64,000 bases of DNA, from the IMG/VR virus record IMGVR_UViG_3300042452_000698, positions 1 through 64,000 of that record. The stretch is one strand, 5' to 3'. Positions 2 through 57,000 of the stretch are shown piece after piece. A program made the position numbers and the translations under genes. Within the stretch, counting starts at the first letter, position 1, and each line of letters begins with the position of its first letter. The DNA comes from a virus (Duplodnaviria; Caudoviricetes). The notes beneath the pieces were generated by a model that saw only the letters and a program-made list of their open reading frames with translations, made no database searches and was not told the origin of the DNA.

Positions 2-136
2 TATGAATTTAATATACATAAAAATGATTTAAGATATAATGAAAACATGGAAAAAAATGGCTATTTCTTACATGCCACATCCTATCATGACAGACTTGGC
101 ACAATGAAAAAGTGGGCCTTTAAAAAACATAAATAA
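2..136 (+). CDS. C-terminal end of a CDS entering from the left edge (hypothetical)
   Basis: Open frame from nt 2 (YEFNIHKNDLRYNENMEKNGYFLHATSYHDRLGTMKKWAFKKHK) ending at TAA 134-136, 11 nt before the next gene. Confidence 0.6.
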   Translation, partial: YEFNIHKNDLRYNENMEKNGYFLHATSYHDRLGTMKKWAFKKHK

Positions 137-147
137 TTGGAGTAAAA

Positions 148-669
148 ATGGATTGGAATAATTATCTAGAATCTATTGACGATTCTCATCAAATGACAAC
201 TAGTAAAAATCATATTTCAATGATTTGCTCTATTGTAAAAGATTGCAGTGGGTTAATTTTAGAAATCGGAAGTCATGCTGGATTAAGCACAGCAGCTATA
301 GCACTAGCAGCAAATAATGCAAAAATAATATCTATAGATTTATCTGATACAATACCAGAGGATTATAGAATAAATTATTGGAAAAATCTAGGCATAAATA
401 ATATCTATCCAGAAACATGCTCTGGATCATATTTTTTGCTAAACACAAAAGATAAATATGACTATATTTTTCATGACTCAATACATGGATCAAGAGCAAT
501 GCAAGAATATTTGGCGTGTGCAAATGTAACTAAAAATCTATTTATTCATGATTTCGAACAGCTAAAAGATCATGAGCAAAAAGAACTAATATCATTGTTT
601 AATAAAACGGATATATCCTTTGATAACAGGGGAAGGGCTTTATTTGTGGGGTGCGAATCATGTTTATAA
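148..669 (+). CDS. Class I SAM-dependent methyltransferase (Methyltransf_24-like)
   Basis: Motif I LEIGSHAGLST, acidic end of beta2 (ISIDL), YDYIFHDSIH, IHD near the C-terminus. Confidence 0.85.
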   Translation: MDWNNYLESIDDSHQMTTSKNHISMICSIVKDCSGLILEIGSHAGLSTAAIALAANNAKIISIDLSDTIPEDYRINYWKNLGINNIYPETCSGSYFLLNTKDKYDYIFHDSIHGSRAMQEYLACANVTKNLFIHDFEQLKDHEQKELISLFNKTDISFDNRGRALFVGCESCL

Positions 670-1094
670 ATTCTTATGATGATTGGATTGCTGAATATAG
701 AAAAGATAAATATAAGATATGGATTAGGGCCACCCTATCTAATAATCTTGATTATTATCTTCCAGAATACAGCTACTGGCTAAAGCTCAAAGATTTTTGT
801 GATGAGGCAAATCTTTTCGTAAAGAAGGTTGGATTACAATACCGATCAAACTCTATAGAAGTTGATGTTTCTGATGCTGACGGTGCTTATTTAGTTCAAT
901 CAATACTTGGGGCCATTGGAGAAAAAAGTAAACAGACAATAACAATAGGTAAGGTGTACGGGGATATAATAAAGAAAACGATGTGGATAATCCCAGAGCT
1001 TGTAGAAGAACTTTCTACAGAAGATAGTATTGAAAACTCTTTTAAGGAAGCATTAATATTTAAACATGGAAAAGAAGAAACCAGCCCTATTTAA
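660..1094 (+). CDS. Hypothetical protein
   Basis: ORF track 651-1094 starts at GTG; in-frame ATG at 660 is more likely; overlaps both neighbours. Confidence 0.75.
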   Translation: MFINSYDDWIAEYRKDKYKIWIRATLSNNLDYYLPEYSYWLKLKDFCDEANLFVKKVGLQYRSNSIEVDVSDADGAYLVQSILGAIGEKSKQTITIGKVYGDIIKKTMWIIPELVEELSTEDSIENSFKEALIFKHGKEETSPI

Positions 1095-3103: not shown

Positions 3104-3545
3104 ATTGTCGAAACATATTGATGCGATCAATTCTTACGTAGATGTTGGAAATTTAAAGTTTTCCTCATTTAAGGAAGAGTATCTTCTAGTTTCTAATTAT
3201 TCACAAGAACAGCTAAATAAGCTAACCCAAGAAGAACTATTTAGTTCAGCATATCTTTTATACAGCTATGCTAGTTATATACAGGATGAAATAAATAAAA
3301 ATAAGATAGCACTTAGCTGGTGCAACGACGAAATGGAAAAAATGATAGTAACTAATGCTGGAGAGTTTGGACAATATACCAAACATGAATCTAAGAAGTA
3401 TATATTATCTCAAGCAAATTCATATGCACACTCTATAGAAAATATGAGAGAGGTAGCAGAAGCTAGACTTCAAGCTCTTGATGGCAAGGTTTTTGAAATC
3501 AAAAGAAAAGCAGATATACTATTAGAAAAGGGGAAGAGATCATGA
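3069..3545 (+). CDS. Helical protein, possible UvsY-like recombination mediator
   Basis: All-helical/coiled-coil 158 aa, two genes downstream of recA; the UvsY call rests on size and context only. Confidence 0.4.
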   Translation: MSGEKELKASDKLSKHIDAINSYVDVGNLKFSSFKEEYLLVSNYSQEQLNKLTQEELFSSAYLLYSYASYIQDEINKNKIALSWCNDEMEKMIVTNAGEFGQYTKHESKKYILSQANSYAHSIENMREVAEARLQALDGKVFEIKRKADILLEKGKRS

Positions 3546-10579: not shown

Positions 10580-10611
10580 AGGTTGATTGATAATCTTTGA
10601 AAAGGAGATAT

Positions 10612-38220: not shown

Positions 38221-40044
38221 TTAATCTCCTAGCTCATAAGTCCAGTTTAAACTGATACTATATCTTTTTTCTTTTGGATCCCAACTTTCAGTTGGTGGAC
38301 TTAAGAAATATTTTCTAATATTTGGTTCTCTTGATGGACTTAAATATGATATTACATTCATTAAAGATGATCTCATTGGCTCATTTAAGCTTGGCTTAGA
38401 TAATAATAATTGTTGTCTTGCTGTTCCGCCATAATCTGGATCTACCGTTAACTCTATTGTAACGCTTCTTTGGTACTCTGTTCTTCCACCTATATATTGT
38501 AATATTGGTCCAGTTTTGCGTCCTATAACTGGTATAGTAGCAAAAATATCTCCGGGATATGTATCTTGTATAGAAATTTTCTCAGATAATACTCCGCTAA
38601 GAACAAGATTTAGTGGTCTTGTGTCAAACGAAACATTATAAGTTATTTCTCCATTAAATTCATTAGATCCAAGACTAACAGAAAGTGGTACTGGATTTAA
38701 AAATTTCCCAATTAAATTACTAGCTCTTTTATATATATGTGAAGTAAGACCAAATGTACCATTATTACTAATTTCTCTATATTTTAGTATAGCATTATGA
38801 TACGGTGAATTAAGACTGCCAACACTAACACTACCTAATGCTCCACCGTATATATCCCCACTAGATGGCAAACTTGTTAAACCTCTAATTGTTCCATCTA
38901 TCGAAACTCCGATTATGCTACTTTCATTTGTTGAAGAAACCGACGCGGTATATGATTCATAAGATGTTCCACTGGATAATAGCCATGTGTCTGTAACAGC
39001 ATATGATCCATTTGTTTTATCAATATTTTCTGTTCTAGAATGATTATATCCACCAAAAGCGTGCTGGGCTAAACTAATAAATCCACTAGCAAATCCAGAT
39101 TCGAAATTAAGTTTTGGGTATTGATCATATTGATTAAAGGCATTATTAGCATTTTCTCCATCTTTATCGCCTAAGATTTTTTTTTCTATAAACTCTTTTG
39201 CTTGCTGCCAAGCTTCATATCGTACACTTGGGCCGGTAGAATTAGCAGTACTAGGTCCATATATTGTTCTTCCAACAGCACTAATATTTCTTGTTAATCT
39301 GTATCCCCTTACTGTATTTAATCCGGGAGCAACAAATGGATTAGATGTGTTACCGGTATTTTCTTCTGGCTCTAAAGACCAGCTTTCGCTAAAATCTTCA
39401 ACAAGGCCACCATGTTCTTTTATATGTTGTTCTAATGTTTTTGATGCTGCGGAGCTAAGATGTTCTGTGGTATAAAAACCTTGAGAGTTTATAGTCCCAG
39501 ATGGCTCAAAATTAAGATAGTGCAAACTATCCGCAAAAATATTATCATTCTTATCAAAGAATAAATCTGTTGTTAGATTAATTGTATAATTGCACTTGTC
39601 AATATATATTCCCTCTTCAAAAGAAATAGATTCGACTTTGGGGAAAAATACTAAAACCGGCTCATTGCCCTCCCAAGATAATACTTCAACACGCTGTCCA
39701 TCTATAGCAAAAAGATTTCTTAAAGCGTTTTGTTTTTGCAGTATAGATGCTGCTCTGTCTGAATTTGATACCAAGTCTGCGGCAGAATCATTAAAATTAC
39801 CATGAAACTTTACAGGTAATGCTTCTGGCTGAACGGGCGTATTTGTTCCTAAAAAATTTGGAGATCCTCTATTATCTAATAGGGTTCCATTTAGGGTAAT
39901 ATTATATGTAGTTCCCATGTTTCCCATTTTATTCTTATTTCTTGTAGAAGAAATAGAAATTAATGGGCATGGTCTAATTACTGTTGCCACTGGCGTTGCT
40001 GGTGTGCCATTAGCGTTAACGCCGCCAGAATATACTATAATCAT
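38221..40044 (-). CDS. Putative distal-tail/baseplate protein, 607 aa
   Basis: Alternating beta-strand patterns (TYNITLNGTL, FSESWSLE, GEITYNVSFD); downstream of the tape measure. Confidence 0.5.
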   Translation of the reverse strand: MIIVYSGGVNANGTPATPVATVIRPCPLISISSTRNKNKMGNMGTTYNITLNGTLLDNRGSPNFLGTNTPVQPEALPVKFHGNFNDSAADLVSNSDRAASILQKQNALRNLFAIDGQRVEVLSWEGNEPVLVFFPKVESISFEEGIYIDKCNYTINLTTDLFFDKNDNIFADSLHYLNFEPSGTINSQGFYTTEHLSSAASKTLEQHIKEHGGLVEDFSESWSLEPEENTGNTSNPFVAPGLNTVRGYRLTRNISAVGRTIYGPSTANSTGPSVRYEAWQQAKEFIEKKILGDKDGENANNAFNQYDQYPKLNFESGFASGFISLAQHAFGGYNHSRTENIDKTNGSYAVTDTWLLSSGTSYESYTASVSSTNESSIIGVSIDGTIRGLTSLPSSGDIYGGALGSVSVGSLNSPYHNAILKYREISNNGTFGLTSHIYKRASNLIGKFLNPVPLSVSLGSNEFNGEITYNVSFDTRPLNLVLSGVLSEKISIQDTYPGDIFATIPVIGRKTGPILQYIGGRTEYQRSVTIELTVDPDYGGTARQQLLLSKPSLNEPMRSSLMNVISYLSPSREPNIRKYFLSPPTESWDPKEKRYSISLNWTYELGD

Positions 40045-43000
40045 GCTTTTCCTCTGATTCTCAGATTAAGTTTATCAGATTGTGATCCTATCCCACTAGC
40101 GTACAGGGTCAATCCAGAATTATTTATCTCTACCGGATCTGGACAATTTGTATATAATATAAATCCAGATGGTAAATTAGTAGCAAAATCTATTATTGCG
40201 CTATTGTACAATCCTAGACTATTATACACAATTGCTTTATCGTCAACACTGGTAAATATATGAAGATTTTGGTTTATAAAATTAGATCCGTTAGTATATA
40301 ATGTAATATTGCCATTGTTTGGAGTTCCAAAGGTATACTGACCATCTATCGACTTGATAAACGGTCTATGTGAAATAAATCCCTTAATTGCTGGATCTTG
40401 TCCAGAAACCTCTATAAAAATCTGACCTTTATTATCAGAAAATATTGTTCCGCTTGCAAAATACTTTTGGTTATTTTCGCCGCTATTTTGTACTGAAATA
40501 AACACATTTGGATTACCGGCAGAGTCTCTTTCTCCAAAAACTTTAGCCTGTATAAATGCTTCTGGGCTTGGTATTGATGGTGGCGGCTGTCTTAACATTA
40601 TATCATAAGAATATGAAGAGCCGCTAGAATATATACCAGAATTTGATCCGGCAAAAACAGTATAATCGGCATCTGTTCTAAATAATCTATCTATAGAAAC
40701 GATAGATCCAAAATTTTGATTATCGCACCCAGAAACTGGGACTATTTTTTCTACAAATGTCCACTTTTTGTCTTTGGTAGACCAATCTATTATTTTATTT
40801 TCAAAAGTAAATATAGATCCATTATTTAACAGTGCATTCCCACTATTTTGTAGCCTAATTCCAGAAGAGCCTAAGTCTGTGACTATTCTTTGTGGGATAT
40901 AAAATTCTTCATTAAATTCTTTTCTAATAAATGATCCACTAGTATTAATGTATTTATTGTTAAAATCATGCCCCGGAGCGCCAACAACTATAATATCTGA
41001 ATCAATATCCACGCTAAGACCAAACTGATCAGTTATTATAGAGTTATTAGCTAAATATCCAGAACCATAATTATGGGTTCCTAACACACCAGACCCGTTT
41101 CCATCATAAATGTCTTGTCCAATGTTTACGGAGCTTGGCCTTAGTTTCTGTATAAACTCCCACGGAGTTAATGTTCCATGAAGTCCGCTTCCACTAAACG
41201 TCTTCTCAAATACGAAAACTGATCCAGCACCACCATTATAAGATAATTCTATTCCAGAAGAAGATCCACCATCAATATATTGCTGCCAAGGATTTATTAT
41301 TTCATCGGAAAATGCTGTGAACGGGGCGCCAACAATTAGTTTATTGTTATGTAGTGCTATAGAATATCCAAATAAATCTCCGGGATATCCAGATGGAAGT
41401 TTATTGAAGTCTATATGATCATAGCCCTTATCTTTTAGTAATTGTGGTAATCCACCATAGATATTAATATCTTTATATAATGTGCCATCGACTACTTCGG
41501 TAAATTTAGATTTTGCTCCAAAATTAGTTTCTTGTAGCATAAACGCTTGTCTTGCGGCATTTTTCTTAGATTCTATAGAAATTTCATCATCAGATATATC
41601 CCAAGGATCTAGTGGGTAAATTACATATCTTGGATCATAATGTGATTCTATACTATTAAATAGATTTGGCTGTTTACTTGGTATTGAACCAGCAAACTTA
41701 TTACTTAACCCACTATTAGAAACAAGTGATAAATACTTTTGTGGGCTTCCACGTTCTGGAGCAACTATCTTAGTTTGTTGATTAAACTGTCTTCCGGCAT
41801 TTGCAGAAGCAAAGTTTGTTTGTGGATATAAGCTACTAATAAAATTAAGTGTGCTTAGTGGTATTCTTCCTTGATCGTCTCCAAGATATCTTCCTTGTAC
41901 AAGAGAAGAATCTGCAATTAGTGTAATTCTTGATCTATTATATCCAGCATTAAAAGATGTTATATGTTCTTGCTCTTGAGCAACAATAACTGGTCCATCT
42001 GCTATTAATTGATCATCAAATCCACTATCTAAACAATCTTCTTGACAATATTGTGTGTTTTTATTCTTGATAAAATCAAAAAATTCTCTTGTTACTATTC
42101 TTTCTGGCTCTCCGTTGCTAATTAGATAGTTTTCATAACCAGTTTGTACATTTACAGAATATGTAGATGTTGCAATATTTTCTTTAATTCCTATTGGTAC
42201 TCCAGAGATAGAAATTAATTTTGGTGTTTTTGGAATATATCCATCAACATTACTTATTGTTGGAACATAAGATGTAATATAAAAATCTATTGTATTCTTA
42301 TTTTCTTTTACCTGCGCGTTGAATGAAACTGATCTAGTTGATGCAAAATCTTGATAAATGTCAATCGGGAATGTTGGATATGGGATTTTTGGACTAATAG
42401 AAACATTTTGTGTAGAAACATTGAGTGTTTGTGATTCATATTCATTATCTGATTTTGTATTAATAAATATTTTATATCCAGATCCAGCAATTGCTGGGAA
42501 CGAAACTTTTGCTTGACTGTTTATTGACCAATATCCATTAGTAATGACTTCTGTATCATAAACTGGGCCGCCATAATAAGCTATTGGAATAATATTATTA
42601 TTTAACTTAAATGATATAAATTCAATACTATTTAGGCCAGTAAAGTTAATCTGCTGAATTGATGTTATAGCGTCATTGTACCCAATAGATATTGGGTGAT
42701 TTGGATTTAATCTAATATAATTTTCTTGGTTAAGTCTAATTCTTACATAGACATCATCAACTGGCAAGTATAGTGACTCTATATCTGATCCAAGTAGATC
42801 AAATAAAGAGTTTGCTATATTCATTTGCTCTATTGAGCTATCATGTGTTACAATTAATTTTTTATTTCCAATAGATAACCAAGACTTAATAGCTGTAAGC
42901 TCTATATCGTTTGGTATATTTTTAGGATTAGCTATCCAACAGACATCATCATATGAATATATAGTATCAGAATATTCAATAAAATTACCATTGTCTAAAA

Positions 43001-46000
43001 ATACTCCATGAAGTTGTGAGTCTGGATAAGCATCGGTAAAGCTAGATCTTCCAACCCATTGAGAAGAAAGAAACTTTATTCTTGAACCTCCGTCACTAGA
43101 TTTTGATACCATATTAACATAAAAATTAATATTTTCATCGTTAGCAAATGATTTATCTAATCCAGCATTATATAAAACTGATTCTGATTCTGTGAATAAT
43201 CCAGCAATTGCTATAATTTTAGAGTTATATAGTGATTGCTCAACACTAAAATATGCTTTATCTGAAACTTGTTTTTTACCAAATGTTTGTTCTGAAAATG
43301 GTGATGCAAGTATTTGTAAAATTCCGCTTGTTCCATCTTGAGGTTGTGGCTGTATAATATTATTAGAACCAATTAAGTATTCAGCGTCTACTTGATCATC
43401 TATTGACCAAATAAAGCTAGTAGATTCACCAACGTCATTTTCATCGAATGTAACAAACAATGAATTTGAAGTATATGTTTCTGTTGAATATGTTGGGCGT
43501 GTACCATATACTGGTCCAGATGATGGAATTACAATAGTTTCTATTTGTTTTTTAGCAGCAGCTAAAATTGGAATTGGCTCTTGATTTTTTCCGTTGACGC
43601 GAGAGCTTGCTAATGATTTCTTTGTTTCTTCTTCGTCGCAATTGCATAGAGGCGTAAAAGTGCTAAAATAAAATGGAATATTTACAGCATATTTTTCTCT
43701 TCTTCCTCCGCAACCGATACAATATTTATACCATTGCGCTCTCAAATCTCCAGCGTTTTTAATTGGTAGTTCGCACTTAGTATTAGCGGTTGGTAGTGTA
43801 ACCACAACCTCATTACCAAGATCAACATTTTCTGAGGAGCATGAAGAATAAATAACTTTATCTTTTAATAGTGGAATATTATCAAAATTTGTTCTTATAT
43901 CTGCAACACCGTGAATATTAACATTTGTTTTTGAAATATATGTTGGAGTTGAATTATCAACAAACGTTGGTATTCCCAAAGATTCGTTATCTAAACAGGC
44001 TTCTAATTGGTTTCTAGCTGGGAACAGTTTCATTCTTGAATCTAATTCTTCTAAAATTTTATTAACAATTTCATTAGATTCAGAGTATACTCCACTACTT
44101 TCCCAAGTTGGGTCATTTCCAACAAGAACAAGATTTCTATCTCCGAGAGATAACCATTCAACAATATTATCTAATACTTCATTACTTAATGCGTCAACAG
44201 ACGGCGTGATAATAAAAGCTAATCCAGCATCTTGTGGTATATTGACCTGAGAAAATGGTGTTACTTCAAAGTTATTGTCTTGAAATATTGTTGGTAAATA
44301 GTTAAAGTGTCCAGAGTCTTCTGGTAGACCTAATTCTTTTTGTAGATTACCAAATTTACCATATTCGATAACTTTATTATGTGGATAATACTTTCTAGAT
44401 TCAAAAATTCTAACTGCGCCAGCATTAACATTTGACCTCCAAGCTGGAGTAATTATGTTGGTATTTAAGCTAGTATCTTCAGTGTTCAAATATCCAAGAT
44501 TCTTATAATAAACCCTAGCGTCATCCCACTGATTAAGACTATCTGTTGGCGCACCAAACGCAACTATACTTCCGTCATCATTTACGGCAGCGCTATATCC
44601 AAGTCTAGCTGTTGGCGCAAACTCATCAATTATAAAGTTCCACTTTGATTTTCCAACAAAATTTCCTTGATTATAACTAAGTACCTGTTTGTATTCTTGA
44701 ATATTTAGATACTTTCTAGCTTCAAATTTTTCTGTTGATGTTAGTTTTGAATATAAAATCTTATTACTATAATCATACCCATATTTTGCAACCCAAGAAT
44801 AGTAATCAGAAATTAATGTTGCATATCTTCCAACTCCTCCAGTAATAGAACTCTTATGAGCTACCCAAGATGATATTTCATTAAATATTCTATCTTTTTC
44901 TGACTGCTTGTACTCAAAGACTTGGCAAGAATCTGAAATATATGGAGATCCAATAGCAATTACTTCAGTATTGTCGCTAATAGCAATAGCGTGTCCAAAT
45001 CTATCTGGATGACTGTATGTAATATTAGAAGATTTAATTTCTTGAACTAGGTTCCAATATCCGCTTTCTTTTTCGAAAATAAAGACTTTACCACCACTAT
45101 CTGGTGGATAGTTAAATTGTGAAAGATTTTCATTGAATGCGTCTTGACCAACTCCAGATGTAAAAAATCTAACTTGATTATCTTGTAATAATCTTCCAGT
45201 ATCAAGAACATAATCAAGCATTGAGTTTGCTGCATCAATCCAGTGCGATGGGGCCGAAACGTGTCTTACAACAGCGCCGGAAGATGGTGTATTATAAAAA
45301 TCTCTTAATCCACTAGCAAAACTATAACTTTGGTAATAGTTAATGAAATTATTTAGTGATGAAACTTGTCCATCAATAGCGTTTCGCATAGATCTTGTAT
45401 TATCAACATAAATTCCAAGCATAGCCGGAATGTTATTATTAATCTTTGTTGAGTCATATGGAAATGCTGAATGGAATGCTTCTTTTATGCCGCTAAGTAT
45501 TTTTTCATTTCTTTCAGCGGTGATAAAACCTTGATTTCTAGATATTGTTCTTTTTGTTATAAAGTCGGTTTGTGGGCTTTCTAGCGGTATTCTATTTGAA
45601 TAATCAGATAGTGGCTCACAAATAATAATCTTGACATCAAATGAAACTGGTGGATCTGAAAAATACTTAAATATTAAATCTTTGTTTTGTATTTTAGATA
45701 AAATGCTTGTATAATTATCTACATATGCTTGTCCAGTTGGTGATCTTCTAGTTACATTTGGAGTAAATTCATCTGTAAAAATTAGTAAGCCAACTTGAAC
45801 GCCAGAAGTTTGTAATTCTTCAAGAGGTCTTGGTGTCCACTTAGAATTTGGTCCACCAACAACAATAATTTCTCTTTGATTTTCTTCGAAAGATTTAATT
45901 CCAGAATTAACTCCTATTGCAACGCTGTGTCCAAACTCTCTACCCTCTTGTCCAACTTGCCATAGTCTTTCTGTTATTGGTAAAGGTAAAGGTATATTAC

Positions 46001-49000
46001 CAATGGTGTTTGTGTATCTTGGCACAAAATAATCTTTTAACATACCAGATGGTAATGTTAATTTGGTTTCTAGCGTCCAAGGAGACTTGTGTTTATCAAC
46101 GGGCCAAGTGTTTCCGCTTGGTCTAGCTTCTCTTCTGTATACAAATACTGCCCCGGCATCCTCTAGAATTCCACTAGTTAAATTATTACTCTCATCATAT
46201 TCATAGTATACTAAGTCATGTTTTGGTGCGCCAACAACCATTAGATCATTTTTAATATCTCCACACTTTCCGTATTCGTCTGTTGGCTGTATTTCATTAT
46301 TTAGTAAACTTATTCCAGAATATCCAACATAATCGTTAGATCCATATTCTACTTCTGTAAATTCAAATGGTAATTCTATCGGCCTATTACTACCAGTTTG
46401 TGCTTCTATAACTATTGAGTATGGTGACTGTGGTAATAAATTATCATATTTTCTAATACCGTAAAAATGCCCACTATATCCAACTTCTGTTCTAAATCCG
46501 CTGGTTTCTAAATTTGTATACGTATTTTGCGGTCTGAATATTCCACCGTCAACACAGCTTTCTGGTGGGCTATATAATATTGAATGAGATTCTACAATGT
46601 CTTCTGCACAATTGTTTTCGGTTCCACATTCGCCAAAACAATCTAAATCAACGCCTCTAATTTCATCGTTAGCATCTAAATATGATTCTTGATTGTCTAA
46701 AGTTGTTATATCTTTTCCAACATTCTCTGAATTCCAAGATATTGTTTCTTGCTTGTTTAAAAGCGGATTTGCTGGATAATTTATGGTATATAAAGATAAT
46801 CCACTAGCAATAAATTCTGCCGCAGGAACGCCATTTAAATATAGTGGTAACGCTGAATTTTGGGATAGCGGATCTTTGTAAAACCCATTAATAAATAAAT
46901 TTGTCGTTGCTGATGGAAATGAATTTACCAACTGTGGTATAGAATAAACATAAAAACCAATACTATTATTTAAATATTCTACTTGTGGTTTATTAAAAAC
47001 TGATAGCACTAACGAATTTAATGCTGATTGATCAGCAAGAAGATTTTGAGTAAACAGCGCTAAATTATTTTCTGCAAACTTATCTGTTCTTCCAGAAATA
47101 TATGTAAATAAAGCTTTATTATGTGAACCTACATTATGACAATATAGTGGAATATTATTATCATGGATATAAGCACCAAAAGAATAAAAAGATAATGCGC
47201 CAGACACAAGTGGAATTGCTTGTCCACTAGAGAACATATTTAACGAATCTACTACAAAATCAAAACCTTTTGTATGTAAATCTAGTGAAGATAGTGCTTT
47301 TAGTTCTCCGCTAGAAATAAGATTTATTGTATTATTTTCATTTAGTTCTTTTACTATAGCTTTAAGACCAACATTAATAGAATCAATTCTTATTTTTGAC
47401 TTGAAGGCTTGTCCAGAGGGATAAACCAAGTCATATTGTAAGAACATATCATCTATGTCTTTAGAATAAAACTTCTCATTAAATTCTGTAATATAGGTTT
47501 CAGAATCAAAACTTGCCCAAGGTTCTGAAGTATCAATTAAATCATTATATGTAAATTTACTTGATATTTTTTGTACGCATCCAGATGGTTGTAAATAATG
47601 AATAGCTCTATTAATAAGACCCCAATTAGTTTTACTTGGTCTATCAACCGGTTCCTTATTTTTAGTATATAAACTAACTATAAGTTTTGGACCGATTTTT
47701 CCATCTGACCAAGAAATATCATTATATGTGCTGTGTGTTATAACCGAATCAACAACAAGGGCGTCTTCCGTAAAATTATATCCTCTTGGAATAGTTTTAG
47801 ATATTCTTGGAACAACAGAATGAAATCTTGAAGTATCATCATTATCTTGAATATCACTTAAATAGAATCGTAAAAAGTCATTTTCTATTTGTGTGTGGTA
47901 AGCCAAGCCAGAAGCATAAATATTAGATGGTAATGGTAGATTAATTATTTCTGAATACGGCCTACCATCATGCGTCAAACTGTGGAAAATATAATCTTTG
48001 CCTTCTCTCCTAAGTAAATGATCAAAGTCTGGAGAAAACGCGCATGTATTAAAATCTCCTATTTTCCAAAAAGAAACATTTTCATCAACATATGAATATA
48101 AATCATTGTTTAAAAAGCTATTTACAGTGGTTTGTTTAAGTAGCCTATTTGGGTTGCTGCTAACTATATTTCCACTAGTTGATATTCCTATTTCATGAAT
48201 AAATAAAGCGTTGTCATAATTGCTATCACCAAAAACTAAATCTGAAGTAGAAGTTGGTAAGGATTGATTTAAAGATATTAGTAAATCGTTAGTATTGTTT
48301 GTTTCATTTTTATGATAAAGGTTGATTCTTGGCTCATTAGAATTATATGTTAATAATAGTGATAGCGGGTAGTTAACACTCGTAACATCTAGTAAATCAT
48401 CAAAAGAGCTTGCTCCAACAGATAAAACTAATTGCTCTGTAGAGTTATCAATATAGAGAGCAAAAGAAGAACCCTTTGATACTATAGTATTTTGAATGTC
48501 GTTATTGTAATCATAGTTTGGAGAAAATCTTACATATAACGCGGCGCCGCTAGAGAAAGATGTATTACTAAAACTTAGCGTTCCGCTGTTTCCACCAACT
48601 AAAATTGCTGAATCAAATGAGTCTGTAATTTTTTCGTGTAGAGGATCTCCAACCTGCGTCCAATCTATAGTAGTATAATCTGTATTATGAGTAAATAGCT
48701 GTTCATCTTTAAATCTCCATCCAATATTCTTTAAAACATTTAGTGAATTACTAAAATATCCACTATTAGAATAGTTATCTGATATTACAAAATTTCCACT
48801 TATATTTGTAAAATCATAATATCCATTTAGGAATGGCTGATCAGCCTCTGGATTAAAGAATGAAAAATCAAACTCATTTGGATTATATGGGCCATAAACA
48901 ATATTTCCATCAACACCACGCCATCTTCTAGCATAATTTGTTTTTGATTCTAAACTAAATGCATTTGGAATATTTGTTATGTATGATCCAGAAGCATTAT

Positions 49001-51098
49001 CAAAAACAGGATCTAATAATTTTTTAGCAGATGGCTTTAATACTAAATCTCTAATTGCCATATCTTGTAATGATGGTCTTCCAAGGGTGTGCATCATTAT
49101 AGCATTCGATGGCTTGTACTTAATTATTAATTGTGCTGAAGATATAGCCGCTCCACTTGGTAGATTATAGATATCTAAATATAGATTTTCAAAATATGAA
49201 CTGTTATTATAGTTATTTGATATTTGAAGTGGAATTATATATTCTTCAAACGATGTTCCACTAATTATTGGTAATGTTGATAATTTATAGTGATCTCCAG
49301 CACTATTTGATACTAAATTAAATTCTTTATACTGGTCTTTATCGGAAATAGATTCTGATGATATTCCAAATTCATCGGTTTCAAAAAATCCAGAAGATAA
49401 TGGAATAACTCCAGTTCCTTCTTGAAGATTTTGTAAAAATGCATCTAATTTAGGAGTAATATTTAGAATTTTATCGTCACTCCAGCCAACGATATCTAGA
49501 GCATAATCTCTTGTTCCGGGAGATTTTTTAGCAATAACTTTAAGACTTATTTCATCTACTATGAAGAAATTGTCTTGTGCTTGAACAGCTTTTAGCGTGG
49601 CGGCTTTATAAGAATCGTTGAACGATGGGCTAAAGTATCCATCGGAAAGTGAGTCTACGGTTTCTGGCGGTTTATGACTAAACCTTAATGATAATCTTCC
49701 ACTGTCATTTTCTGGGTCTGTATATACTAATTTAATATAATTTAGTGGTGTTGTATCTTGTAGTTTAGATGTTAATACTCTACTTCCAGAAACAGATGTA
49801 TTTCTTGCAAAATTACCAAGATCATCTAAAGAAGACTCCCAAACGCCTTGGGACTGTGGATAAATACCTAGATCTGTATCACTGGTTATTACCTCTACAG
49901 GAAGTATATTTCTTATTAATCTATTTCCTATGGCGTTTACTTCTGTGTAGAATCTTAGATAATTGCTATTTATAGCACCATCACCGCCGCTATTAGCAAT
50001 TTCTATAGCAGATATTCTTATAGAATTAGTTGGATTTAAGGAAAAATTTTGAACCTGTGTTGATAGTGGAGATCCGTCAAAAGATAAATAACTATTATTA
50101 GAAGAATTAACAAAATCTAGTTTACAAGTATCTTCATAGCCCTTATCAAACCCTTGAGAAAATGGATCATCCAAACAATCTATTGCAAAATCTATATTTA
50201 AGGTATAGCCACTTGGCTCATTCATTAATGGGAAATTAGTATCCCAAGTATTTAGTTCAAGATTATTTATTTCTGGTTCTGAAATATATGTTGCAAAGTT
50301 TACATAGTCAGTATTATAATCAGCATCTCCCCTAAGAATAATATCTTTATATTTAATGATTAAGTTGCCAGAAGGATCTTCTAGCTTAATATTATGAAGT
50401 CTATATTGTGGAGGAATATCTGATGAATAGTTTGAAACTGGCGCGGCTGCGCGAATAAAAAGAAAACTTTCTTCTATGCTATTTGGCCTTGTGACCTCAA
50501 ATTTATATCTAAAATCTCCCTTCGTAAGAATAGAAGATGGTTGAATATATGACTGTCTTTCGTCTGAGATTATTGAACCATTGCGAGTTGGTGTAACATA
50601 ATCTCCAACGTAAACGCCCTCATCAATATTACTATATAGATTTGTGCTATTTAGGTTCTTATCTACAAAATAGCTATTATTTAAAGATGTTACTATATCT
50701 CTAATTGGGAATAGCTTTTGTGTTGATAAAAATCCGTTTAAGCCTTTTATTTTTTCTGTGTTACCACCAAACTTATCAACTTTTACATTCTTAAAAGAAC
50801 TAACAGAAGTATTTTTAGAAGATAATGATAAAGAACATTTGGTCTTTGATCTAATTGCTCCAATACCAATATTTTTAGATATTAGATTTGCATTTAGTTT
50901 TGTTTTTGGCAAAACGTTTGCTTTGGCTTCATTTTTAGAAACTATTAATACTGATTTAGATACTTTTGGAATTATATTACCAACAAAGTTTACTTTTGAT
51001 CTAATGTCATGCGAAACATTGATTCTACACTTAAGTCCAGAAGTAGACTTAATTTTAGATTCTTTTTTTGTTTCACAGTTTAAGCAAAATGTAGCCAT
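40041..51098 (-). CDS. Giant tail adhesin-like protein (3685 aa): FG-GAP propeller, vWA-like MIDAS motif, LamG-like and GldG/DUF4350-like segments
   Basis: Seven FG...GAP blades, IYVDNTRSM, two W-L-S-x-G-x-[RK]-x-L repeats, LxLY repeats. Confidence 0.7.
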   Translation of the reverse strand: MATFCLNCETKKESKIKSTSGLKCRINVSHDIRSKVNFVGNIIPKVSKSVLIVSKNEAKANVLPKTKLNANLISKNIGIGAIRSKTKCSLSLSSKNTSVSSFKNVKVDKFGGNTEKIKGLNGFLSTQKLFPIRDIVTSLNNSYFVDKNLNSTNLYSNIDEGVYVGDYVTPTRNGSIISDERQSYIQPSSILTKGDFRYKFEVTRPNSIEESFLFIRAAAPVSNYSSDIPPQYRLHNIKLEDPSGNLIIKYKDIILRGDADYNTDYVNFATYISEPEINNLELNTWDTNFPLMNEPSGYTLNIDFAIDCLDDPFSQGFDKGYEDTCKLDFVNSSNNSYLSFDGSPLSTQVQNFSLNPTNSIRISAIEIANSGGDGAINSNYLRFYTEVNAIGNRLIRNILPVEVITSDTDLGIYPQSQGVWESSLDDLGNFARNTSVSGSRVLTSKLQDTTPLNYIKLVYTDPENDSGRLSLRFSHKPPETVDSLSDGYFSPSFNDSYKAATLKAVQAQDNFFIVDEISLKVIAKKSPGTRDYALDIVGWSDDKILNITPKLDAFLQNLQEGTGVIPLSSGFFETDEFGISSESISDKDQYKEFNLVSNSAGDHYKLSTLPIISGTSFEEYIIPLQISNNYNNSSYFENLYLDIYNLPSGAAISSAQLIIKYKPSNAIMMHTLGRPSLQDMAIRDLVLKPSAKKLLDPVFDNASGSYITNIPNAFSLESKTNYARRWRGVDGNIVYGPYNPNEFDFSFFNPEADQPFLNGYYDFTNISGNFVISDNYSNSGYFSNSLNVLKNIGWRFKDEQLFTHNTDYTTIDWTQVGDPLHEKITDSFDSAILVGGNSGTLSFSNTSFSSGAALYVRFSPNYDYNNDIQNTIVSKGSSFALYIDNSTEQLVLSVGASSFDDLLDVTSVNYPLSLLLTYNSNEPRINLYHKNETNNTNDLLISLNQSLPTSTSDLVFGDSNYDNALFIHEIGISTSGNIVSSNPNRLLKQTTVNSFLNNDLYSYVDENVSFWKIGDFNTCAFSPDFDHLLRREGKDYIFHSLTHDGRPYSEIINLPLPSNIYASGLAYHTQIENDFLRFYLSDIQDNDDTSRFHSVVPRISKTIPRGYNFTEDALVVDSVITHSTYNDISWSDGKIGPKLIVSLYTKNKEPVDRPSKTNWGLINRAIHYLQPSGCVQKISSKFTYNDLIDTSEPWASFDSETYITEFNEKFYSKDIDDMFLQYDLVYPSGQAFKSKIRIDSINVGLKAIVKELNENNTINLISSGELKALSSLDLHTKGFDFVVDSLNMFSSGQAIPLVSGALSFYSFGAYIHDNNIPLYCHNVGSHNKALFTYISGRTDKFAENNLALFTQNLLADQSALNSLVLSVFNKPQVEYLNNSIGFYVYSIPQLVNSFPSATTNLFINGFYKDPLSQNSALPLYLNGVPAAEFIASGLSLYTINYPANPLLNKQETISWNSENVGKDITTLDNQESYLDANDEIRGVDLDCFGECGTENNCAEDIVESHSILYSPPESCVDGGIFRPQNTYTNLETSGFRTEVGYSGHFYGIRKYDNLLPQSPYSIVIEAQTGSNRPIELPFEFTEVEYGSNDYVGYSGISLLNNEIQPTDEYGKCGDIKNDLMVVGAPKHDLVYYEYDESNNLTSGILEDAGAVFVYRREARPSGNTWPVDKHKSPWTLETKLTLPSGMLKDYFVPRYTNTIGNIPLPLPITERLWQVGQEGREFGHSVAIGVNSGIKSFEENQREIIVVGGPNSKWTPRPLEELQTSGVQVGLLIFTDEFTPNVTRRSPTGQAYVDNYTSILSKIQNKDLIFKYFSDPPVSFDVKIIICEPLSDYSNRIPLESPQTDFITKRTISRNQGFITAERNEKILSGIKEAFHSAFPYDSTKINNNIPAMLGIYVDNTRSMRNAIDGQVSSLNNFINYYQSYSFASGLRDFYNTPSSGAVVRHVSAPSHWIDAANSMLDYVLDTGRLLQDNQVRFFTSGVGQDAFNENLSQFNYPPDSGGKVFIFEKESGYWNLVQEIKSSNITYSHPDRFGHAIAISDNTEVIAIGSPYISDSCQVFEYKQSEKDRIFNEISSWVAHKSSITGGVGRYATLISDYYSWVAKYGYDYSNKILYSKLTSTEKFEARKYLNIQEYKQVLSYNQGNFVGKSKWNFIIDEFAPTARLGYSAAVNDDGSIVAFGAPTDSLNQWDDARVYYKNLGYLNTEDTSLNTNIITPAWRSNVNAGAVRIFESRKYYPHNKVIEYGKFGNLQKELGLPEDSGHFNYLPTIFQDNNFEVTPFSQVNIPQDAGLAFIITPSVDALSNEVLDNIVEWLSLGDRNLVLVGNDPTWESSGVYSESNEIVNKILEELDSRMKLFPARNQLEACLDNESLGIPTFVDNSTPTYISKTNVNIHGVADIRTNFDNIPLLKDKVIYSSCSSENVDLGNEVVVTLPTANTKCELPIKNAGDLRAQWYKYCIGCGGRREKYAVNIPFYFSTFTPLCNCDEEETKKSLASSRVNGKNQEPIPILAAAKKQIETIVIPSSGPVYGTRPTYSTETYTSNSLFVTFDENDVGESTSFIWSIDDQVDAEYLIGSNNIIQPQPQDGTSGILQILASPFSEQTFGKKQVSDKAYFSVEQSLYNSKIIAIAGLFTESESVLYNAGLDKSFANDENINFYVNMVSKSSDGGSRIKFLSSQWVGRSSFTDAYPDSQLHGVFLDNGNFIEYSDTIYSYDDVCWIANPKNIPNDIELTAIKSWLSIGNKKLIVTHDSSIEQMNIANSLFDLLGSDIESLYLPVDDVYVRIRLNQENYIRLNPNHPISIGYNDAITSIQQINFTGLNSIEFISFKLNNNIIPIAYYGGPVYDTEVITNGYWSINSQAKVSFPAIAGSGYKIFINTKSDNEYESQTLNVSTQNVSISPKIPYPTFPIDIYQDFASTRSVSFNAQVKENKNTIDFYITSYVPTISNVDGYIPKTPKLISISGVPIGIKENIATSTYSVNVQTGYENYLISNGEPERIVTREFFDFIKNKNTQYCQEDCLDSGFDDQLIADGPVIVAQEQEHITSFNAGYNRSRITLIADSSLVQGRYLGDDQGRIPLSTLNFISSLYPQTNFASANAGRQFNQQTKIVAPERGSPQKYLSLVSNSGLSNKFAGSIPSKQPNLFNSIESHYDPRYVIYPLDPWDISDDEISIESKKNAARQAFMLQETNFGAKSKFTEVVDGTLYKDINIYGGLPQLLKDKGYDHIDFNKLPSGYPGDLFGYSIALHNNKLIVGAPFTAFSDEIINPWQQYIDGGSSSGIELSYNGGAGSVFVFEKTFSGSGLHGTLTPWEFIQKLRPSSVNIGQDIYDGNGSGVLGTHNYGSGYLANNSIITDQFGLSVDIDSDIIVVGAPGHDFNNKYINTSGSFIRKEFNEEFYIPQRIVTDLGSSGIRLQNSGNALLNNGSIFTFENKIIDWSTKDKKWTFVEKIVPVSGCDNQNFGSIVSIDRLFRTDADYTVFAGSNSGIYSSGSSYSYDIMLRQPPPSIPSPEAFIQAKVFGERDSAGNPNVFISVQNSGENNQKYFASGTIFSDNKGQIFIEVSGQDPAIKGFISHRPFIKSIDGQYTFGTPNNGNITLYTNGSNFINQNLHIFTSVDDKAIVYNSLGLYNSAIIDFATNLPSGFILYTNCPDPVEINNSGLTLYASGIGSQSDKLNLRIRGKA

Positions 51099-54000
51099 TT
51101 ATATAACGCCTGTCATATTTCCTTGTAGTCTTCCGCCCTCTACTACTTTGTAATTTTTGATCTTTTCCCCAACTTCTGTTAAAATCTCTTTTTTAATTTG
51201 TCCAGCTAAACTTGATAAGAATGTTCCACCAGACAAGTTAACGTTTATGTTAGTAGTATCTAATTTAATTTGGAATTTTGTATTTTGTAAATCCTTAATA
51301 TTCTTGGTAAGATTTGTATTGAAATTATTTAGTCCATTAATTAGGTCTGATACTAGGGCTGGGTCTATGCTAACTCCTTGGCCGGTTGCAACTCCACCGT
51401 TTTGCAAATACTGTACTTTTCCACCATTATTGTAATATCTAACTGATCCACCCTTAGAAAGACCGGCAGAGTTTGCTCCACTATTAATAGCTCTTAATAA
51501 CTGTAAATTATTTCCTCTATTTACAGCAGCACGATTAACAACAAATTCTCCGGGAGTTAACATTGCTGGAACGGTATCGGTTCCGCGAGGCACAAACATT
51601 CCATTATTTGCATACACGGTTCCACCTCTATACATTCCAGCAGCTATTCTTCCTCTTTGTTCTATGTCTTGTATAATAAATTCACCCTTTTGCACATTAA
51701 TTGAAGCTGTATTTAGCTCCATTTGTGCCATATCAACTCCAGCTTGACCAGTTTCCGCTAATACTCCACCAAGTTCTCTAATTGTTGCTCGTCTAGCTTC
51801 TTCTTCTGGTGTTGTTCCAGCAAGTGATCTTGCTGCTCCAGCATCAGTCACTCCTCTGGCTCCTAATGCGGCGCCAGCGGCCATTTCTAATAATCCTCCG
51901 GGACCACCAAGCTGCATTCCAAATATTTCTTGGACGCCAGCGGCTTGTTGTCTTTGTATGTTTTCAAATGCTCCAGCTAGTGCGGTCGCTCCAAATTGAT
52001 TAATAAGATCTTGATTGCCGGTTGATATTGCTGCTGTAGCTCCTACCGCAGCCTGTTGCTCAAAGAACTTATCAATATCACCTTTAATTAATGATTCTAG
52101 AGACTCTTTTTCTAGTCTATTCTTTTCTTGAACAATCTTTAGTTCTTCTTGTTCTAGCTTGATTAATGATCTTATAGTATCAACTTGTTGCTTATATGCT
52201 TGTTGTAAATCTTTTTGGTTTTCTGCTGCTTGTACTCCACCAACACCCTCTAAGCCACCTTCCGTTCTTGATCTTTGCTCAAATCTTGCTGCTCCAGCAA
52301 CCATCTCTACATTTCTTCTTCTTAATTCTGCTGCGCTTCCAGTTCTTAAACTAGATAGTCCAACTCTATCTCCTTGAGCATTAGATTTACCTAATATTAC
52401 TGATCTTCTTTCAGCTTCGCTGACAGCCCTACCTCCAGCACCAGCTTGAATTTCTCTTCCTTCTAGATATAAATCTAAAGCCTCTTGTTGTGCTTGAACA
52501 AGGTTTCTTTCAGCGTCTATTCTTGTTTTAGTTAGATTTATTAGTACTTGTTCTGCTTTTTGTCTTTCTTGTGAAATTTTTACTATATCTTCAAGTTGCT
52601 TCTTACCAGCTTCAGTAATTTGATCACCAAAAGCAGAAAAATCACCAGTACTAATGAACTTATCTATATCTTCTGGATTTAATTTTAGATTATCTAATAT
52701 AGATGTAAGATTTTTCTTTGCATCGCCCTCAAGACCAGAAGTTAACTCATCAATAAGAGCTTTCCTAACATCATCTGCGCTGTCAGCGTTTGACTGTCCA
52801 GCTTGTAGTCTTGCTTGTAGGTCAGATCTAACTTTAGAAAAAGACTTATTATAATTTTGTTGAACCTTAATAAATCCTTCTGTGTTTGCTCTAAACTTTT
52901 CTGGATTAACTCCCATTTTTTCTAAATTGCTTGCAACATCATCTATTGCGGCCTTGATATCTGCTGGATTCATTGCTTGGGCTGCGCTTCCAACAGCCTG
53001 AGATAAAAATTCTGCATTAGCAACAAATGTGTTTCCACCAACTTCTAATCCGGCAGCAAACCTGTCCATGCTAGCACTCATTGCGGTTGCTGTTGCGGTT
53101 GGCCCCCTTAAACCAAGATTCATGGCATCAAATGCAGCTTTAGCTCTAGCAACCTCTTTTTCGAGATTTTTCATCTCGTCATCAACTTGCCTTATTTCTT
53201 CTCTTAGTTGCTTTAATGCTTCTTCTGCTGCCTTTGCTCCCTCTTCATCTCCAGCACGACCTAACCTATTTACATCGCTGCTTAAAGTTTGTAATCTAGC
53301 TAATTTGTCTCCAGAAGTTCCAACTCCCAGTGCTTCATTTCTAATTTCTTCTGCTGTTTTTCCTCTAGCAAAACCAGATCTTATTGTAGCTGATCTTGCT
53401 GGAGATTCTAGAGCAAATGCTTCTGATTGGAATTTAGAAGCTTGACGAATTTGTTCTGCGCTTTGTTTTCCAAGGCGCTCGTTTCTTTGTGAAACGGATT
53501 CAACACCTCCAAAACTCAAGAATGATAAAATATTTCTTCCAACACCGCTAACTCCACCGCCTCTATTTTCAAGATTTTTTGTTGCAAAATCACTAGCGCG
53601 TTTTTCTTGATTGTTAGCTTCGTCTGTAGCCGCTCTAATTCTAGATAAAGCTTCTGACGCTGTTATTGTTCCATTTTCAAAATCCTGCATTGCACTGGTT
53701 GCTGTTTTTTGTGCTTGCTCAAGAGCTTTTTGCGTTTTAACAGCGCCAGCCTGAGATGCGGCCAGTGCCTCAATACTATTTAAAGTATTACCACCAAAGA
53801 ATGTTCCAAGACCAATTGCAAATTTTTTAATTAATGGACCAACAACTGGAAGTTCACTTCCTAATTTCAACAATCCAGCCGTTGCCGCCCCAACAGCAAT
53901 TCCATACGGTCCAAAAAATGCGCTCGCGGCTATAATCGATGAACCAAGACTATTTACAGCATCTGCCCCAGCGGCCTCTACAGCGTTTGATTTAGCTTTC

Positions 54001-57000
54001 TGAATATTGCCTTCTTGAATAGCTTTATTTGCTTTGTTTTGATAGTCAATGAACGAATCAACGACAGAAGTTATTCCAGTAAAAGCTAAACCTACACCTA
54101 TTGCTATACCATTAAGTTTAGTTAGATTAGCTAAACCTTTACCAATAAGTCCACCAGCTTGTGCAGATGTAGAAGCTCCACTACCAATTACAGCCTTTGA
54201 AGGATTTTTTAATGTAGCACTAATACCTTTTGTAAATTGCGATCCAGTATTTCCGGCAAAACTCGCAGCAGACGATAATCCTTTACTAACTAATCCGGCT
54301 CCGGGTATTCTAGATAAAGCTTGACCACCAACACTTAAAGATTTACCAAGAAATCCTCCAGCCTTTTCTCCGACGCTCTTTGAACTACTAGCTATTCTAC
54401 TAAAAGTAACATTTGGCATATTTAATCCAGCACTAAACCCTCTACCTATTTGAGATTGATTTATAGATGACCCAATTGATCCTAATCTATTTCCAATAGA
54501 ACTTGCGCTTCTATTAACAAAAGATCCAGCCCTAAAAGCGCCTTTACCAAGCGGTCCTCCACCGCCAATTTGACCGCCGCCAGTTAATCCTCTTGTGGCA
54601 TTTTGTAATATACCACCTATGCTTTTCGGTCCAGTTCCAAATAAGTCTTTTATATTTTTAAGACTAAGGCTAACACCAAAAGCTTCTAGAGCAAAGCCAA
54701 CTGTTGTTATTGTAGAAACTAAACCAAGTAATTCATGAGCCATTCTGGTTGCGGCGCTAGCATTTTCATCAAGCGCAGGCAAGAAGCTTTGTAATAATCC
54801 AACCGTCATAGATGCCGCGAACATTTTATTAGCAGCAACATTTTCTACAAGAGATTTTTTCTGTTGATCATTGGTTTGAGCGACTTGTTGCGTTGTGGTA
54901 TTTGATGCTTGTGTTGTTTTTACAAGAGCCTGTTGAGCATTCGATAGATTTCTAGCTTGTCTACTTAGTGTGTCAAATGGTATATAATCTCCACCAGCAG
55001 CAGACATAACTGGACCAGAACCGCTATATGCTGGTGCAGCGCCGCCGTTATTAAATCTATGTACTACTCCACCCTTAGCATATTTGCCAATTTTATTCAT
55101 TCTGTTTAATGAACCATAACCAATGCTCTTAGCTGCACTTCTATTAATAACAAACTCTCCGGGTGTTAATAGTGCTGGTACAGTATCTGTTCCAACTCCT
55201 CCTCCAGTAGCAAATTTCCTCATTGCTCTTGGGCCTTTACCCCTAAGAGCGTCCATTGCGGGTTGTTTGCTTCCACCTTGGGTAAATATCATATTACCAA
55301 GTGGTATACCAAACAATTGACTTAGATATTCAGCAACTCCGGGTACTCTTTGTGATTTACTAATAATAGATAGTTTGCCCGGCTGTAATTGTCCAGACTT
55401 AATTGCTGTTTGAAGTTCTCTTCCGAATGCTGTTAATGGTGCAGATTTAATGTCACGAAGTCTAGCTGTTGGATCGCGGAAGTATTTATTTAACGCAGCA
55501 GATTGTTGACCAGAAGTTTTTGCTCGTCCATAAGCTTGATCACCAATGGTTCGCTTTAAAGTTCTATCTATGTCAATTGCGCCACCGCCAGCTTTTATTA
55601 ATGCCGCAATAGCAGAGCTTGGACGAGGCATCATTGTTCCGGTTGCATTAACTATATCATCAATTAGCGGTGCTTTTGCTAAACCTCCAAACGCAAATTT
55701 TGATATCATTCCGCCAAAATGTTTTTTCTTACTAAAAGAACTCTTTAGTACTAGTGATTCTCTTTTTTTCTTTTCGTTTTCCGTTTCTGGTCTAACAAGA
55801 TTATTTTGAACTGCTTCAAAAGCCAAAGCGTTAGATGCTTTTGTTTGAAATTTAGATGGAATAGATTGTGCTAAAGAAGATTTTGCATCTACATATTTTG
55901 AAGTTAAATTTTTATAGTCATCTTTTAAAACGTTTGATAAACCAGTTTCAAAGTCGAAAGCTCTTTGCGGTTCTGTTGAAAATGGTGAACCAGATAATAC
56001 TTTAAGCGTATCTTCAAATAAATTTCCTCTACTAGCATCATTAATACCAATTAAGAATCTATTAATATCGTCTGGTGGTATGCGAGTCCTTGAGCCAGAA
56101 AGCCCTAAATCTAAAGCTAAAGCCTGTGCGGAGTTTTCAGCAACTTTTACAAGATTATCATCAATAATTCTACTAAATGAATTGTATGTCTGTCCAGATA
56201 GCCCTTCTCTTTGTAGAGTAAAACTTTTTTGAGATTTAATTGGATAATTATCTGATAATCTTAAGTTTTTAGGCAATTTATTTTCTATGTCTTGTCTTGA
56301 AACTTTGACTGAATTTGATGAATCAAATCCAACATTTTCTAAAATAGCTGCTCCTATTGTATTTTCATTAATTAATCCGCCATTAGCATAGCGATTTTCA
56401 TTCATCGCTGCTAAATTACTAGCACCAAGTCTATTAACGCTGCTTTTTCTTATAACAAACTCTCCCGGCTGTAACATTGCTGGAACAGTATCCCTATTTC
56501 CAGAACCCGGAACCATTCCACCCCTTGCAAATTTATGTACTTTACCACCCTTATTGAATGTTCTTCCAGATGTTAGACCGCCACCAATACCTCCAATAAA
56601 ACTACCAATTCCTCTTACTAATCTAACGGCGGTTAATGCTGCTAATAATGGTAACAGAGGTTTAACGGCATCTGCAACTTTGATAAGAGCAGATGCTAGT
56701 GTTAATGCAGTATTTGCCATTATCTGAAATGTGCTGGTTTCAGTAATGCTTCTTATTAACGCCAAGAACTCTTCTTTTACTTTTGTTATTCTAATTGCTA
56801 AGGCTTGTTGTGCCGTTGCGGCGTCTTGCGTTAAACTATTTCCAGCTTTATTTGCAACATTAAGTGCCTGTTGAGCAACAGAAAACTGTTGTAATAATGG
56901 TAATACTTTACCAATTTGTCGGAATCCACCAAGTTCTTCAGCAATTCTAATAAATGTAATATCGCCTTCACCAAGACCAGCAAGTGCGCCACTTAATCTT

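Follow-up and report, generated by a model that had tools for sequence, protein, structure and literature searches.

We analyzed a 64,000-nucleotide (nt) stretch of DNA, hereafter the window, which covers positions 1 to 64,000 of the IMG/VR virus record IMGVR_UViG_3300042452_000698 (Duplodnaviria; Caudoviricetes; a record of 88.5 kb, estimated to be ~55% complete), and found in it an open reading frame (ORF) for a giant tail protein of 3,685 amino acids (aa), P0001 (40041..51098; this ORF and all of its features lie on the minus strand). The protein harbored seven FG-GAP units interrupted by nested domains, and structural models predict that blades 1–4 and blades 5–7, which lie ~1,000 residues apart, form one seven-bladed ring. 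We consider it reasonably likely that P0001 is a giant tail-tip or baseplate protein in which an FG-GAP propeller acts as the scaffold for looped-out domains that would mediate adhesion to glycans of the host envelope. The architecture is well supported, and we infer the function, together with the location in the virion, the binding of glycans, any metal site, and the side that the inserts face.

FG-GAP blades and predicted ring closure

The giant protein matched the Pfam family FG-GAP_2 (PF14312) at a score of 72 bits, where the cut-off is 23 (E 4.6e-20), and separate segment matches fell on blades 1, 3, 5, 6, and 7. The seven FG-GAP units covered residues 1603–3505 (~1,900 aa), and in a 46-sequence full-length alignment the Gly and Pro residues of the FG motifs, the GAP motifs, and the GxVYxF strands were invariant. 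A preliminary description of this DNA, made from the sequence alone, had listed seven FG-GAP motifs, and all of those it quoted were recovered within a few bases of where it had placed them. VVGAP starts at residue 1621 (nt 46238-46224), FGHSVAI at 1722, FGHAIAIS..IGSP at 2034/2049, and LGYSAAV..FGAP at 2166/2181; in the later blades, FGYSIAL..VGAP starts at 3243/3256, FGLSVDI..VGAPG at 3359/3372, and FGSIVSI at 3463.

Blade 1 (residues 1603–1680, 46059..46292) contained YGKCGDI, VVGAP, and AGAVFVY, had a FG-GAP_2 match, and was invariant at G1623, P1625, A1648, and G1649. Blade 2 was found in two parts: strands 1 and 2 (residues 1716–1754, 45837..45953) carry FGHSVAI and IIVVGGP, with invariant G1719, R1720, G1723, and G1748, and strands 3 and 4 (residues 1999–2029, 45012..45104), a β-hairpin in the model, carry SGGKVFIFEKE and YWNLVQEIK, with invariant S2001, G2002, G2003, and E2009. 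Strands 1–3 of blade 3 (residues 2030–2065, 44904..45011; FGHAIAIS, IAIGSP, and CQVFEY) had a FG-GAP_2 match and were followed by an insert of ~85 aa (residues 2066–2150, 44649..44903), as read from the sequence and the alignment. Blade 4 (residues 2160–2249, 44352..44621) contained LGYSAAV, FGAP, AGAVRIF, and VIEY, and its invariant positions were R2165–S2169, G2182, and P2184–S2187. Beyond the 988-aa insert, blade 5 (residues 3238–3330, 41109..41387; FGYSIAL, VGAP, and GAGSVFVF) had a FG-GAP_2 match above the cut-off, blade 6 (residues 3352–3450, 40749..41045; FGLSVDI, VVGAPG, and NGSIFTF) gave the best FG-GAP_2 stretch, and blade 7 (residues 3458–3505, 40584..40727; FGSIVSI, YTVFAGS, and SSYSYDI) gave the third such stretch in this segment.

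The closure of the ring was modeled by a two-chain fold of residues 1590–2245 (blades 1–4 with the blade-2 insert) and residues 3230–3520 (blades 5–7), using own alignments of 57–59 relatives per chain. The ipSAE score was 0.76 (0.75–0.77 in three runs), and the best of three controls scored 0.00; the 0.76 mark was attained by 58 of 80 solved complexes and by 2 of 110 mismatched pairs, counts that are rough, with own alignments used. Run-to-run contact agreement was at least 81%, and the predicted local distance difference test (pLDDT) value of the partner was at least 66. Residues 579–597 and 635–642 of chain 1 (blade 4) contacted residues 10–29 of chain 2 (blade 5), and residues 6–37 and 67–85 of chain 1 (blade 1) contacted residues 225–270 of chain 2 (blade 7). 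Since the confident contacts fell at 4|5 and 7|1, the two junctions that a single ring needs, the model closes one seven-blade ring. These results agree with the discontinuous propeller proposed in the preliminary description, whose two halves are predicted to dock through these junctions.

The α/β domain in blade 2

A Rossmann-like α/β domain of ~245 aa (residues 1755–1998, 45105..45836) was located in the strand 2–3 loop of blade 2. With the FG-GAP repeat order used here (FGxSVA, VVGAP, GxVYVF, and an outer strand), the insert lies inside blade 2 because the conserved SGGxVYIFEKE and YWNLVQEI, which correspond to strands 3 and 4, come after it. [quoted passage not shown] The insert itself is present, but it is shorter than was described, and its actual site is within the blade and not between two blades.

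The AF2 model of the insert, built from 59 sequences, reached a pLDDT of 87.3 and a predicted template modeling score (pTM) of 0.82. The order of its elements was a strand (LLIFTDE), a helix, two strands, a helix, and a strand (LGIYVD, then NTRS), followed by helices, a strand, and further helices, and then the two propeller strands as a hairpin. A Rossmann-like α/β fold is thus what the model indicates, and of the two outcomes that the preliminary description took as refuting it, blades that fail to close into one propeller and an insert that lacks a Rossmann/vWA fold, neither was seen in the models. The best match in the VIA structure comparison was 3rag_B (Z 9.4, root-mean-square deviation (rmsd) 3.8, 157 of 226 residues, identity 10–11%), after which came generic Rossmann-like chains with Z ≤6.7. 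Foldseek against the PDB returned zero matches at E <= 1e-3, with HDAC and GT-B chains in its top rows (TM ~0.26), and Foldseek against the BFVD viral models returned no match.

The motifs quoted earlier for this domain were real: GIYVDNTRSM corresponds to residues 1895–1904 (nt 45416-45387) and LIFTDE to residues 1772–1777 (45768..45785), which closes the insert's first strand. The DNTRS loop within the former, [DE]x[ST]xS (residues 1899–1903, 45390..45404), was located at a strand-to-helix junction, flanked in the model by a strand at segment residues 139–145 and a helix from segment residue 148. Among 59 sequences, the first position of this loop was Asp in 48 and Glu in 11, the third was Ser in 47 and Thr in 12, and S1903 was kept in 58. 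Asp1776 was Asp in 52 of the 59, and E1777 was Glu in just 38. Taken together, the fold and these residues suggest that the insert may be a lineage-specific α/β domain with a conserved polar pocket, which is our reading of it. The conserved loop was also considered as an integrin-type calcium site and rejected; the pattern D.[DN].[DN]G was matched nowhere in the protein.

[quoted passage not shown] The conserved [DE]x[ST]xS loop does stand at a strand-to-helix junction, as does the βA–α1 loop of vWA domains, the well-kept Asp1776 lies at the end of another strand, and the α/β fold is doubly wound in type. Around its switch point such a sheet has pseudo-symmetry, and a permuted vWA domain would look like an ordinary Rossmann-like fold whose binding crevice lies between the two central strands. 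The nearest clusters in a protein language-model comparison were all VWA, a weak point against our reading of the insert, with scores of 0.82–0.85 in a range where values <0.9 are leads only and where one third of shuffled proteins also obtain ten mutually agreeing matches. Pfam VWA gave an E-value of 0.068 on residues 1963–2011; however, this match (13.8 bits) is below the cut-off of 23.8, it covers a stretch that is mostly unstructured in the model and is not built as a strand, and it appeared in 1 of 59 family members, as did VWA_2 (E 0.18). The first Asp of the loop is replaced by Glu in the 11 sequences mentioned above, and a counterpart of the MIDAS Thr was not found in the insert.

Searches beyond Pfam likewise stood against a vWA identity. 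An insert-only profile run against 1.84 billion representative proteins retrieved 95 proteins and recovered no vWA protein; those of the 95 that were checked were family members or fragments of them, apart from a few non-vWA proteins that matched over 40 residues. No vWA domain was found through the PDB profile search, and no vWA chain was present in the 50 best VIA rows, whether 48,161 representative chains were searched (Z >= 5.0) or the best 1,000 Foldseek matches were re-aligned (Z >= 4.8); their absence from these rows is still compatible with a vWA fold. In Foldseek against the PDB, integrin αXβ2 appeared at rank 35 (E 0.025). With a sub-threshold Pfam match that recurs in a single relative out of 59, and a profile that finds only this family, the vWA identity is unsupported, and we regard a vWA-type insert with a working MIDAS as unlikely. 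A MIDAS-like cation site in the insert is conceivable, with a low probability. A further proposal, which we also hold to be improbable, is that the insert, either permuted or of independent origin, works as a cation-dependent adhesion domain of the MIDAS type, in which case the protein would be a functional 'integrin' beside nested lectin modules; if so, adsorption of a phage lineage widespread in lakes and seas would need coordination of a host surface acid by Mg2+ or Mn2+.

The same conserved residues could also be read as catalytic. The insert would then be an enzyme acting on host polysaccharide (an esterase, a deacetylase, or a glycosyl-transfer-related hydrolase) with Ser1903 and Asp1899 in the active site and a depolymerase-like role. 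A near-invariant Ser and an acidic residue lie where a parallel sheet has its C-terminal edge, the usual active-site place of Rossmann-like enzymes; deacetylases, GT-B enzymes, and the NanS esterase are among the weak structural neighbors, and phage tail proteins often bear glycan-modifying enzymes. However, these matches are weak (Foldseek E >1e-3, TM ~0.26; VIA Z 5–6) and spread across unrelated enzyme classes, the best match, 3rag, is without known function, and zero enzyme families were detected by Pfam and the profile search. We therefore give an enzymatic role little credence, and a lineage-specific α/β domain with a polar pocket is kept as the preferred reading of the insert.

The large insert, relatives, and genomic context

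The largest interruption of the propeller, 988 aa between blades 4 and 5 (residues 2250–3237, 41388..44351), had appeared merely as a gap in the preliminary description. Its AF2 model (1,001 aa; pLDDT 84, pTM 0.51) pointed to a nested insert made of a GIFT/class-I-GATase-like domain and a module like a carbohydrate-binding module (CBM); GIFT stands for GldG/intraflagellar transport (PMC9582644). By VIA, the model matched the N-terminal domain of IFT52 (Z 15.9, rmsd 3.2, 204 of 228 residues, model range 2..856), which Foldseek reported with probability 1.00, and GATase1-like and ThuA chains with Z 12–13; 2gk3, 3rht, and 1t0b matched with Z 12.6–13.2. Additionally, CBM61, CBM16, CBM4, and a porphyran-binding CBM matched with Z 9.2–10.3 (124–131 aa, rmsd 2.8–3.4) at the level of the fold, and CBMs, toxin receptor-binding domains, and a chain of CBA120 tailspike 4 matched with Z 9.3–11 in a model range of about 315..733 (CBM-like chains, Z 10–11, about 319..732). 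The second range is nested in the first, which suggests that a β-sandwich and a further α/β element interrupt the GIFT-like domain; the propeller would then contain at least two levels of nesting. DUF4350 (PF14258) scored 17.8 bits against a cut-off of 30.4, with a precomputed match in a minority of homologues, and these weak matches are consistent with a GIFT-like domain. The blade-2 insert and the GIFT-like domain are not regarded as paralogues, as an hhalign comparison of the former with the large insert gave no relation.

The giant-protein family is large and metagenomes are its only known source, judging from sequence searches. At least 172 metagenomic clusters (90% identity) of 2,000–4,200 aa matched at E = 0, and 71 related IMG/VR loci were found on contigs of up to 174 kb. 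The propeller module had zero matches in 50,697 GenBank phage records (megablast and tblastn), no family was found for the whole protein among PHROGs, and sequence searches of the PDB with the single protein, a full-length profile, and the insert profile gave nothing meaningful. A literature search on FG-GAP, phage, and tail returned nothing relevant, and a paper describing the family was not found. A distant metagenomic relative, P0203 (2,950 aa, 25% identity), had five FG-GAP_2 stretches and was mostly without the nested insert; in it, the segments aligned to blades 3 and 5 are separated by ~338 aa, against 1,174 aa here. This short spacing fits a plain ring that later gained the large insert, as far as the sequences tell.

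In many relatives the giant gene consisted of two adjacent ORFs. The break was found at P1491/1497 in L005, L015, L021, L023, L041, L046, and L048, and at P1238/1260 in L044 and L045, and the stand-alone forms of the propeller module (2,177–2,382 aa) covered P1493/1497–3684. Because relatives encode two ORFs, the window ORF is regarded as a fusion of an N-terminal module (residues 1–1491, 46626..51098) with a propeller module of ~2,190 aa (residues 1497–3685, 40044..46610). The split ORFs overlap slightly, for example in L005:9998-21300, L021:9983-21369, and L044:9977-21261, and they may be separate genes or the product of a programmed frameshift. Frames of 5,183–5,598 aa were observed in three relatives (L029:5408-21598, L064:4682-21475, and L070:3259-18807), where ~1,500–1,900 extra in-frame residues precede the family protein and the upstream ORF is shortened; a fused portion of the tape measure may account for this extension.

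The N-terminal module matched no family in Pfam or PHROG. No Dit or Tal (gp27-like) domain was recognised by either database, and the language-model atlas gave no usable match for residues 1–720. A Cys-rich stretch, DLDCFGECGTENNCAEDIV...SCVDGG (residues ~1487–1515, 46554-46640), with invariant C1487, C1491, C1497, H1505, and C1515, coincides with the boundary at which relatives split the gene and may be a zinc or disulfide knot. The protein ended in a C-terminal tail of 180 aa (residues 3506–3685, 40044..40583) with short LxLY/FxxG-type repeats, which was weakly similar, in several registers, to residues 1240–1495. Hydrophobic LxL[YF]TxG-type repeats (e.g., ITLYTNG, LTLYASG, LPLYLNG, and LSLYTIN) end both modules (46614-47381 and 40044-40421); compared by BLASTP, the two repeat regions gave E 0.009 in several registers, and they may be a common anchoring or oligomerisation element. 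Weak Pfam matches to Peptidase_M9_N, CBD_PlyG, and DUF5749 were dismissed as noise.

The giant ORF belongs to a minus-strand late operon that runs from ~63.6 kb down to 25.7 kb. Directly upstream is the gene for a tape measure protein of 2,267 aa (51099..57902, minus strand; PF10145, E 9.6e-28; PHROG tape-measure families, E 1e-26), the stop codon of which abuts the ATG of the giant ORF with zero gap. The 3' end of the giant ORF overlaps the next gene by ATGA, and the five downstream genes (29006-40044, minus strand) encode proteins of 607, 155, 116, 1,616, and 1,174 aa, for which zero Pfam or PHROG families were found. The order of tape measure, giant protein, and proteins of ~600, ~1,500–1,700, and ~1,000 aa was kept in the 15 IMG/VR loci examined. 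Replication genes, for a DnaB-like helicase and a DNA polymerase, lie in the plus-strand half of the window together with one for a glycosyltransferase-like protein (3936-5405, 10597-12225, and 15182-16843), and no tRNA genes were found in the window. The DNA polymerase showed at most 32% identity to any deposited phage, with no close cultured relative, and since its relatives are all below 33% identity, the host is not inferable. Near-identical DNA was present in lake and freshwater metagenomes of several studies.

Proposed role and comparison with known systems

Because of its gene position and its size, we assign the giant ORF to the tail-tip or baseplate structural proteins, in what would be an uncultured freshwater phage with a long tail of the non-contractile type. 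The propeller would act as a rigid scaffold from which the 245-aa α/β domain, the ~85-aa segment of blade 3, and the 988-aa module are looped out. In FG-GAP propellers, such as those of integrins, the 2–3 and 4–1 loops share one face, and the inserts in blade 2 and between blades 4 and 5 would therefore form a composite surface on that (top) face. The nested domains of sugar-binding type might bind host envelope glycans during adsorption, and the α/β insert could offer a polar pocket (Asp1776, Asp1899, Thr/Ser1901, and Ser1903) for a ligand or a cation.

Several points weigh against this proposal. The evidence consists of sequence and predicted models. The N-terminal ~1,500 aa are unexplained, so that several places in the tail are conceivable for the protein (Dit-like, Tal-like, or peripheral). 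For the large insert, the pTM of 0.51 makes the placement of its domains uncertain, the order of nesting was read from the first and last aligned residues alone, and no CBM or lectin family was detected by sequence. In addition, FG-GAP propellers are well represented among solved structures, and the docking of the two halves may reflect likeness to these. The halves were moreover folded as separate chains, so that closure within one chain and closure between subunits are indistinguishable in this test, and the 988-aa linker module would permit either pairing. Blades 1–4 of one subunit could then pair with blades 5–7 of its neighbor, a domain swap serving as an oligomerisation device at the tail tip, where proteins are trimers or hexamers. 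Nevertheless, we think such a swap quite improbable: the short spacing in P0203 favors an ancestral intra-chain ring, and known insert-bearing propellers, including that of the integrin α chain, close in one chain (PMC2784866 for the architecture).

The scaffold reading gives an architecture to a large metagenome-only family found in lakes and other waters. With a propeller assembled from two parts of the chain that lie ~1,000 residues apart, and with at least two levels of nesting, the protein would represent an extreme of domain insertion, and its FG-GAP propeller would serve as a natural scaffold able to accommodate very large insertions in its loops. Should the nested modules bind glycans of the host, the protein would be the prime candidate for the way in which these uncultured phages recognise their hosts.

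Siphophage tail-tip proteins ('evolved' Dit and similar) bear decorations of carbohydrate-binding modules, and the protein resembles them in having β-sandwiches in loops of a structural protein encoded directly after the tape measure. In contrast to 'evolved' Dit, its scaffold is an FG-GAP propeller and not a Dit ring, and its size is greater by an order of magnitude. The core of the large insert is like the GIFT/GATase1 fold (IFT52, GldG, ThuA, and DUF4350) and superposes on the N-terminal domain of IFT52; unlike in GIFT proteins, this domain is split by other domains and lies within a propeller, and its DUF4350 score is below the cut-off. For the blade-2 insert, the best structural neighbor is PDB 3rag (Aaci_0196 of Alicyclobacillus acidocaldarius), an uncharacterised protein with no link at the sequence level, for which neither a function nor literature was found.

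Among phage tail proteins with a seven-bladed propeller, phiKZ gp131 and its paralogues carry theirs at the C-terminus and at the tip of a baseplate fiber, and host binding was proposed as its function (Sycheva et al. 2012, as given in PMC13250141). Unlike the protein studied here, gp131 belongs to a myovirus jumbo phage, and the account given there describes its propeller as a compact C-terminal domain and does not mention nested inserts. No sequence relation between gp131 and the propeller module was seen by tblastn in the 50,697 phage records.

The closest parallel in architecture is the α chain of the I-domain integrins (αM, αX, αL, and others), which shares with P0001 a seven-bladed FG-GAP propeller, an inserted α/β domain of ~200–245 aa near blade 2, and a conserved D-x-S/T-x-S loop in that domain. 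The differences are considerable. The insert lies in the strand 2–3 loop of blade 2 in the phage protein and between blades 2 and 3 in integrins (PMC2784866), and it is not detectably vWA. The DxDxDG calcium loops, which integrins have in blades 4–7, are absent from the whole phage protein; thigh and calf domains were not detected (FG-GAP_2 was the only Pfam family), and a transmembrane segment was not searched for. The C-terminus is a 180-aa repeat-bearing tail in place of the GFFKR tail of integrins, and P0001, as a probable virion protein, has a second nested insert, of 988 aa, between blades 4 and 5. What the protein has in common with integrins lies in its architecture and is probably convergent, and the propeller with its looped-out domains is a likely convergent parallel to the I-domain integrins.

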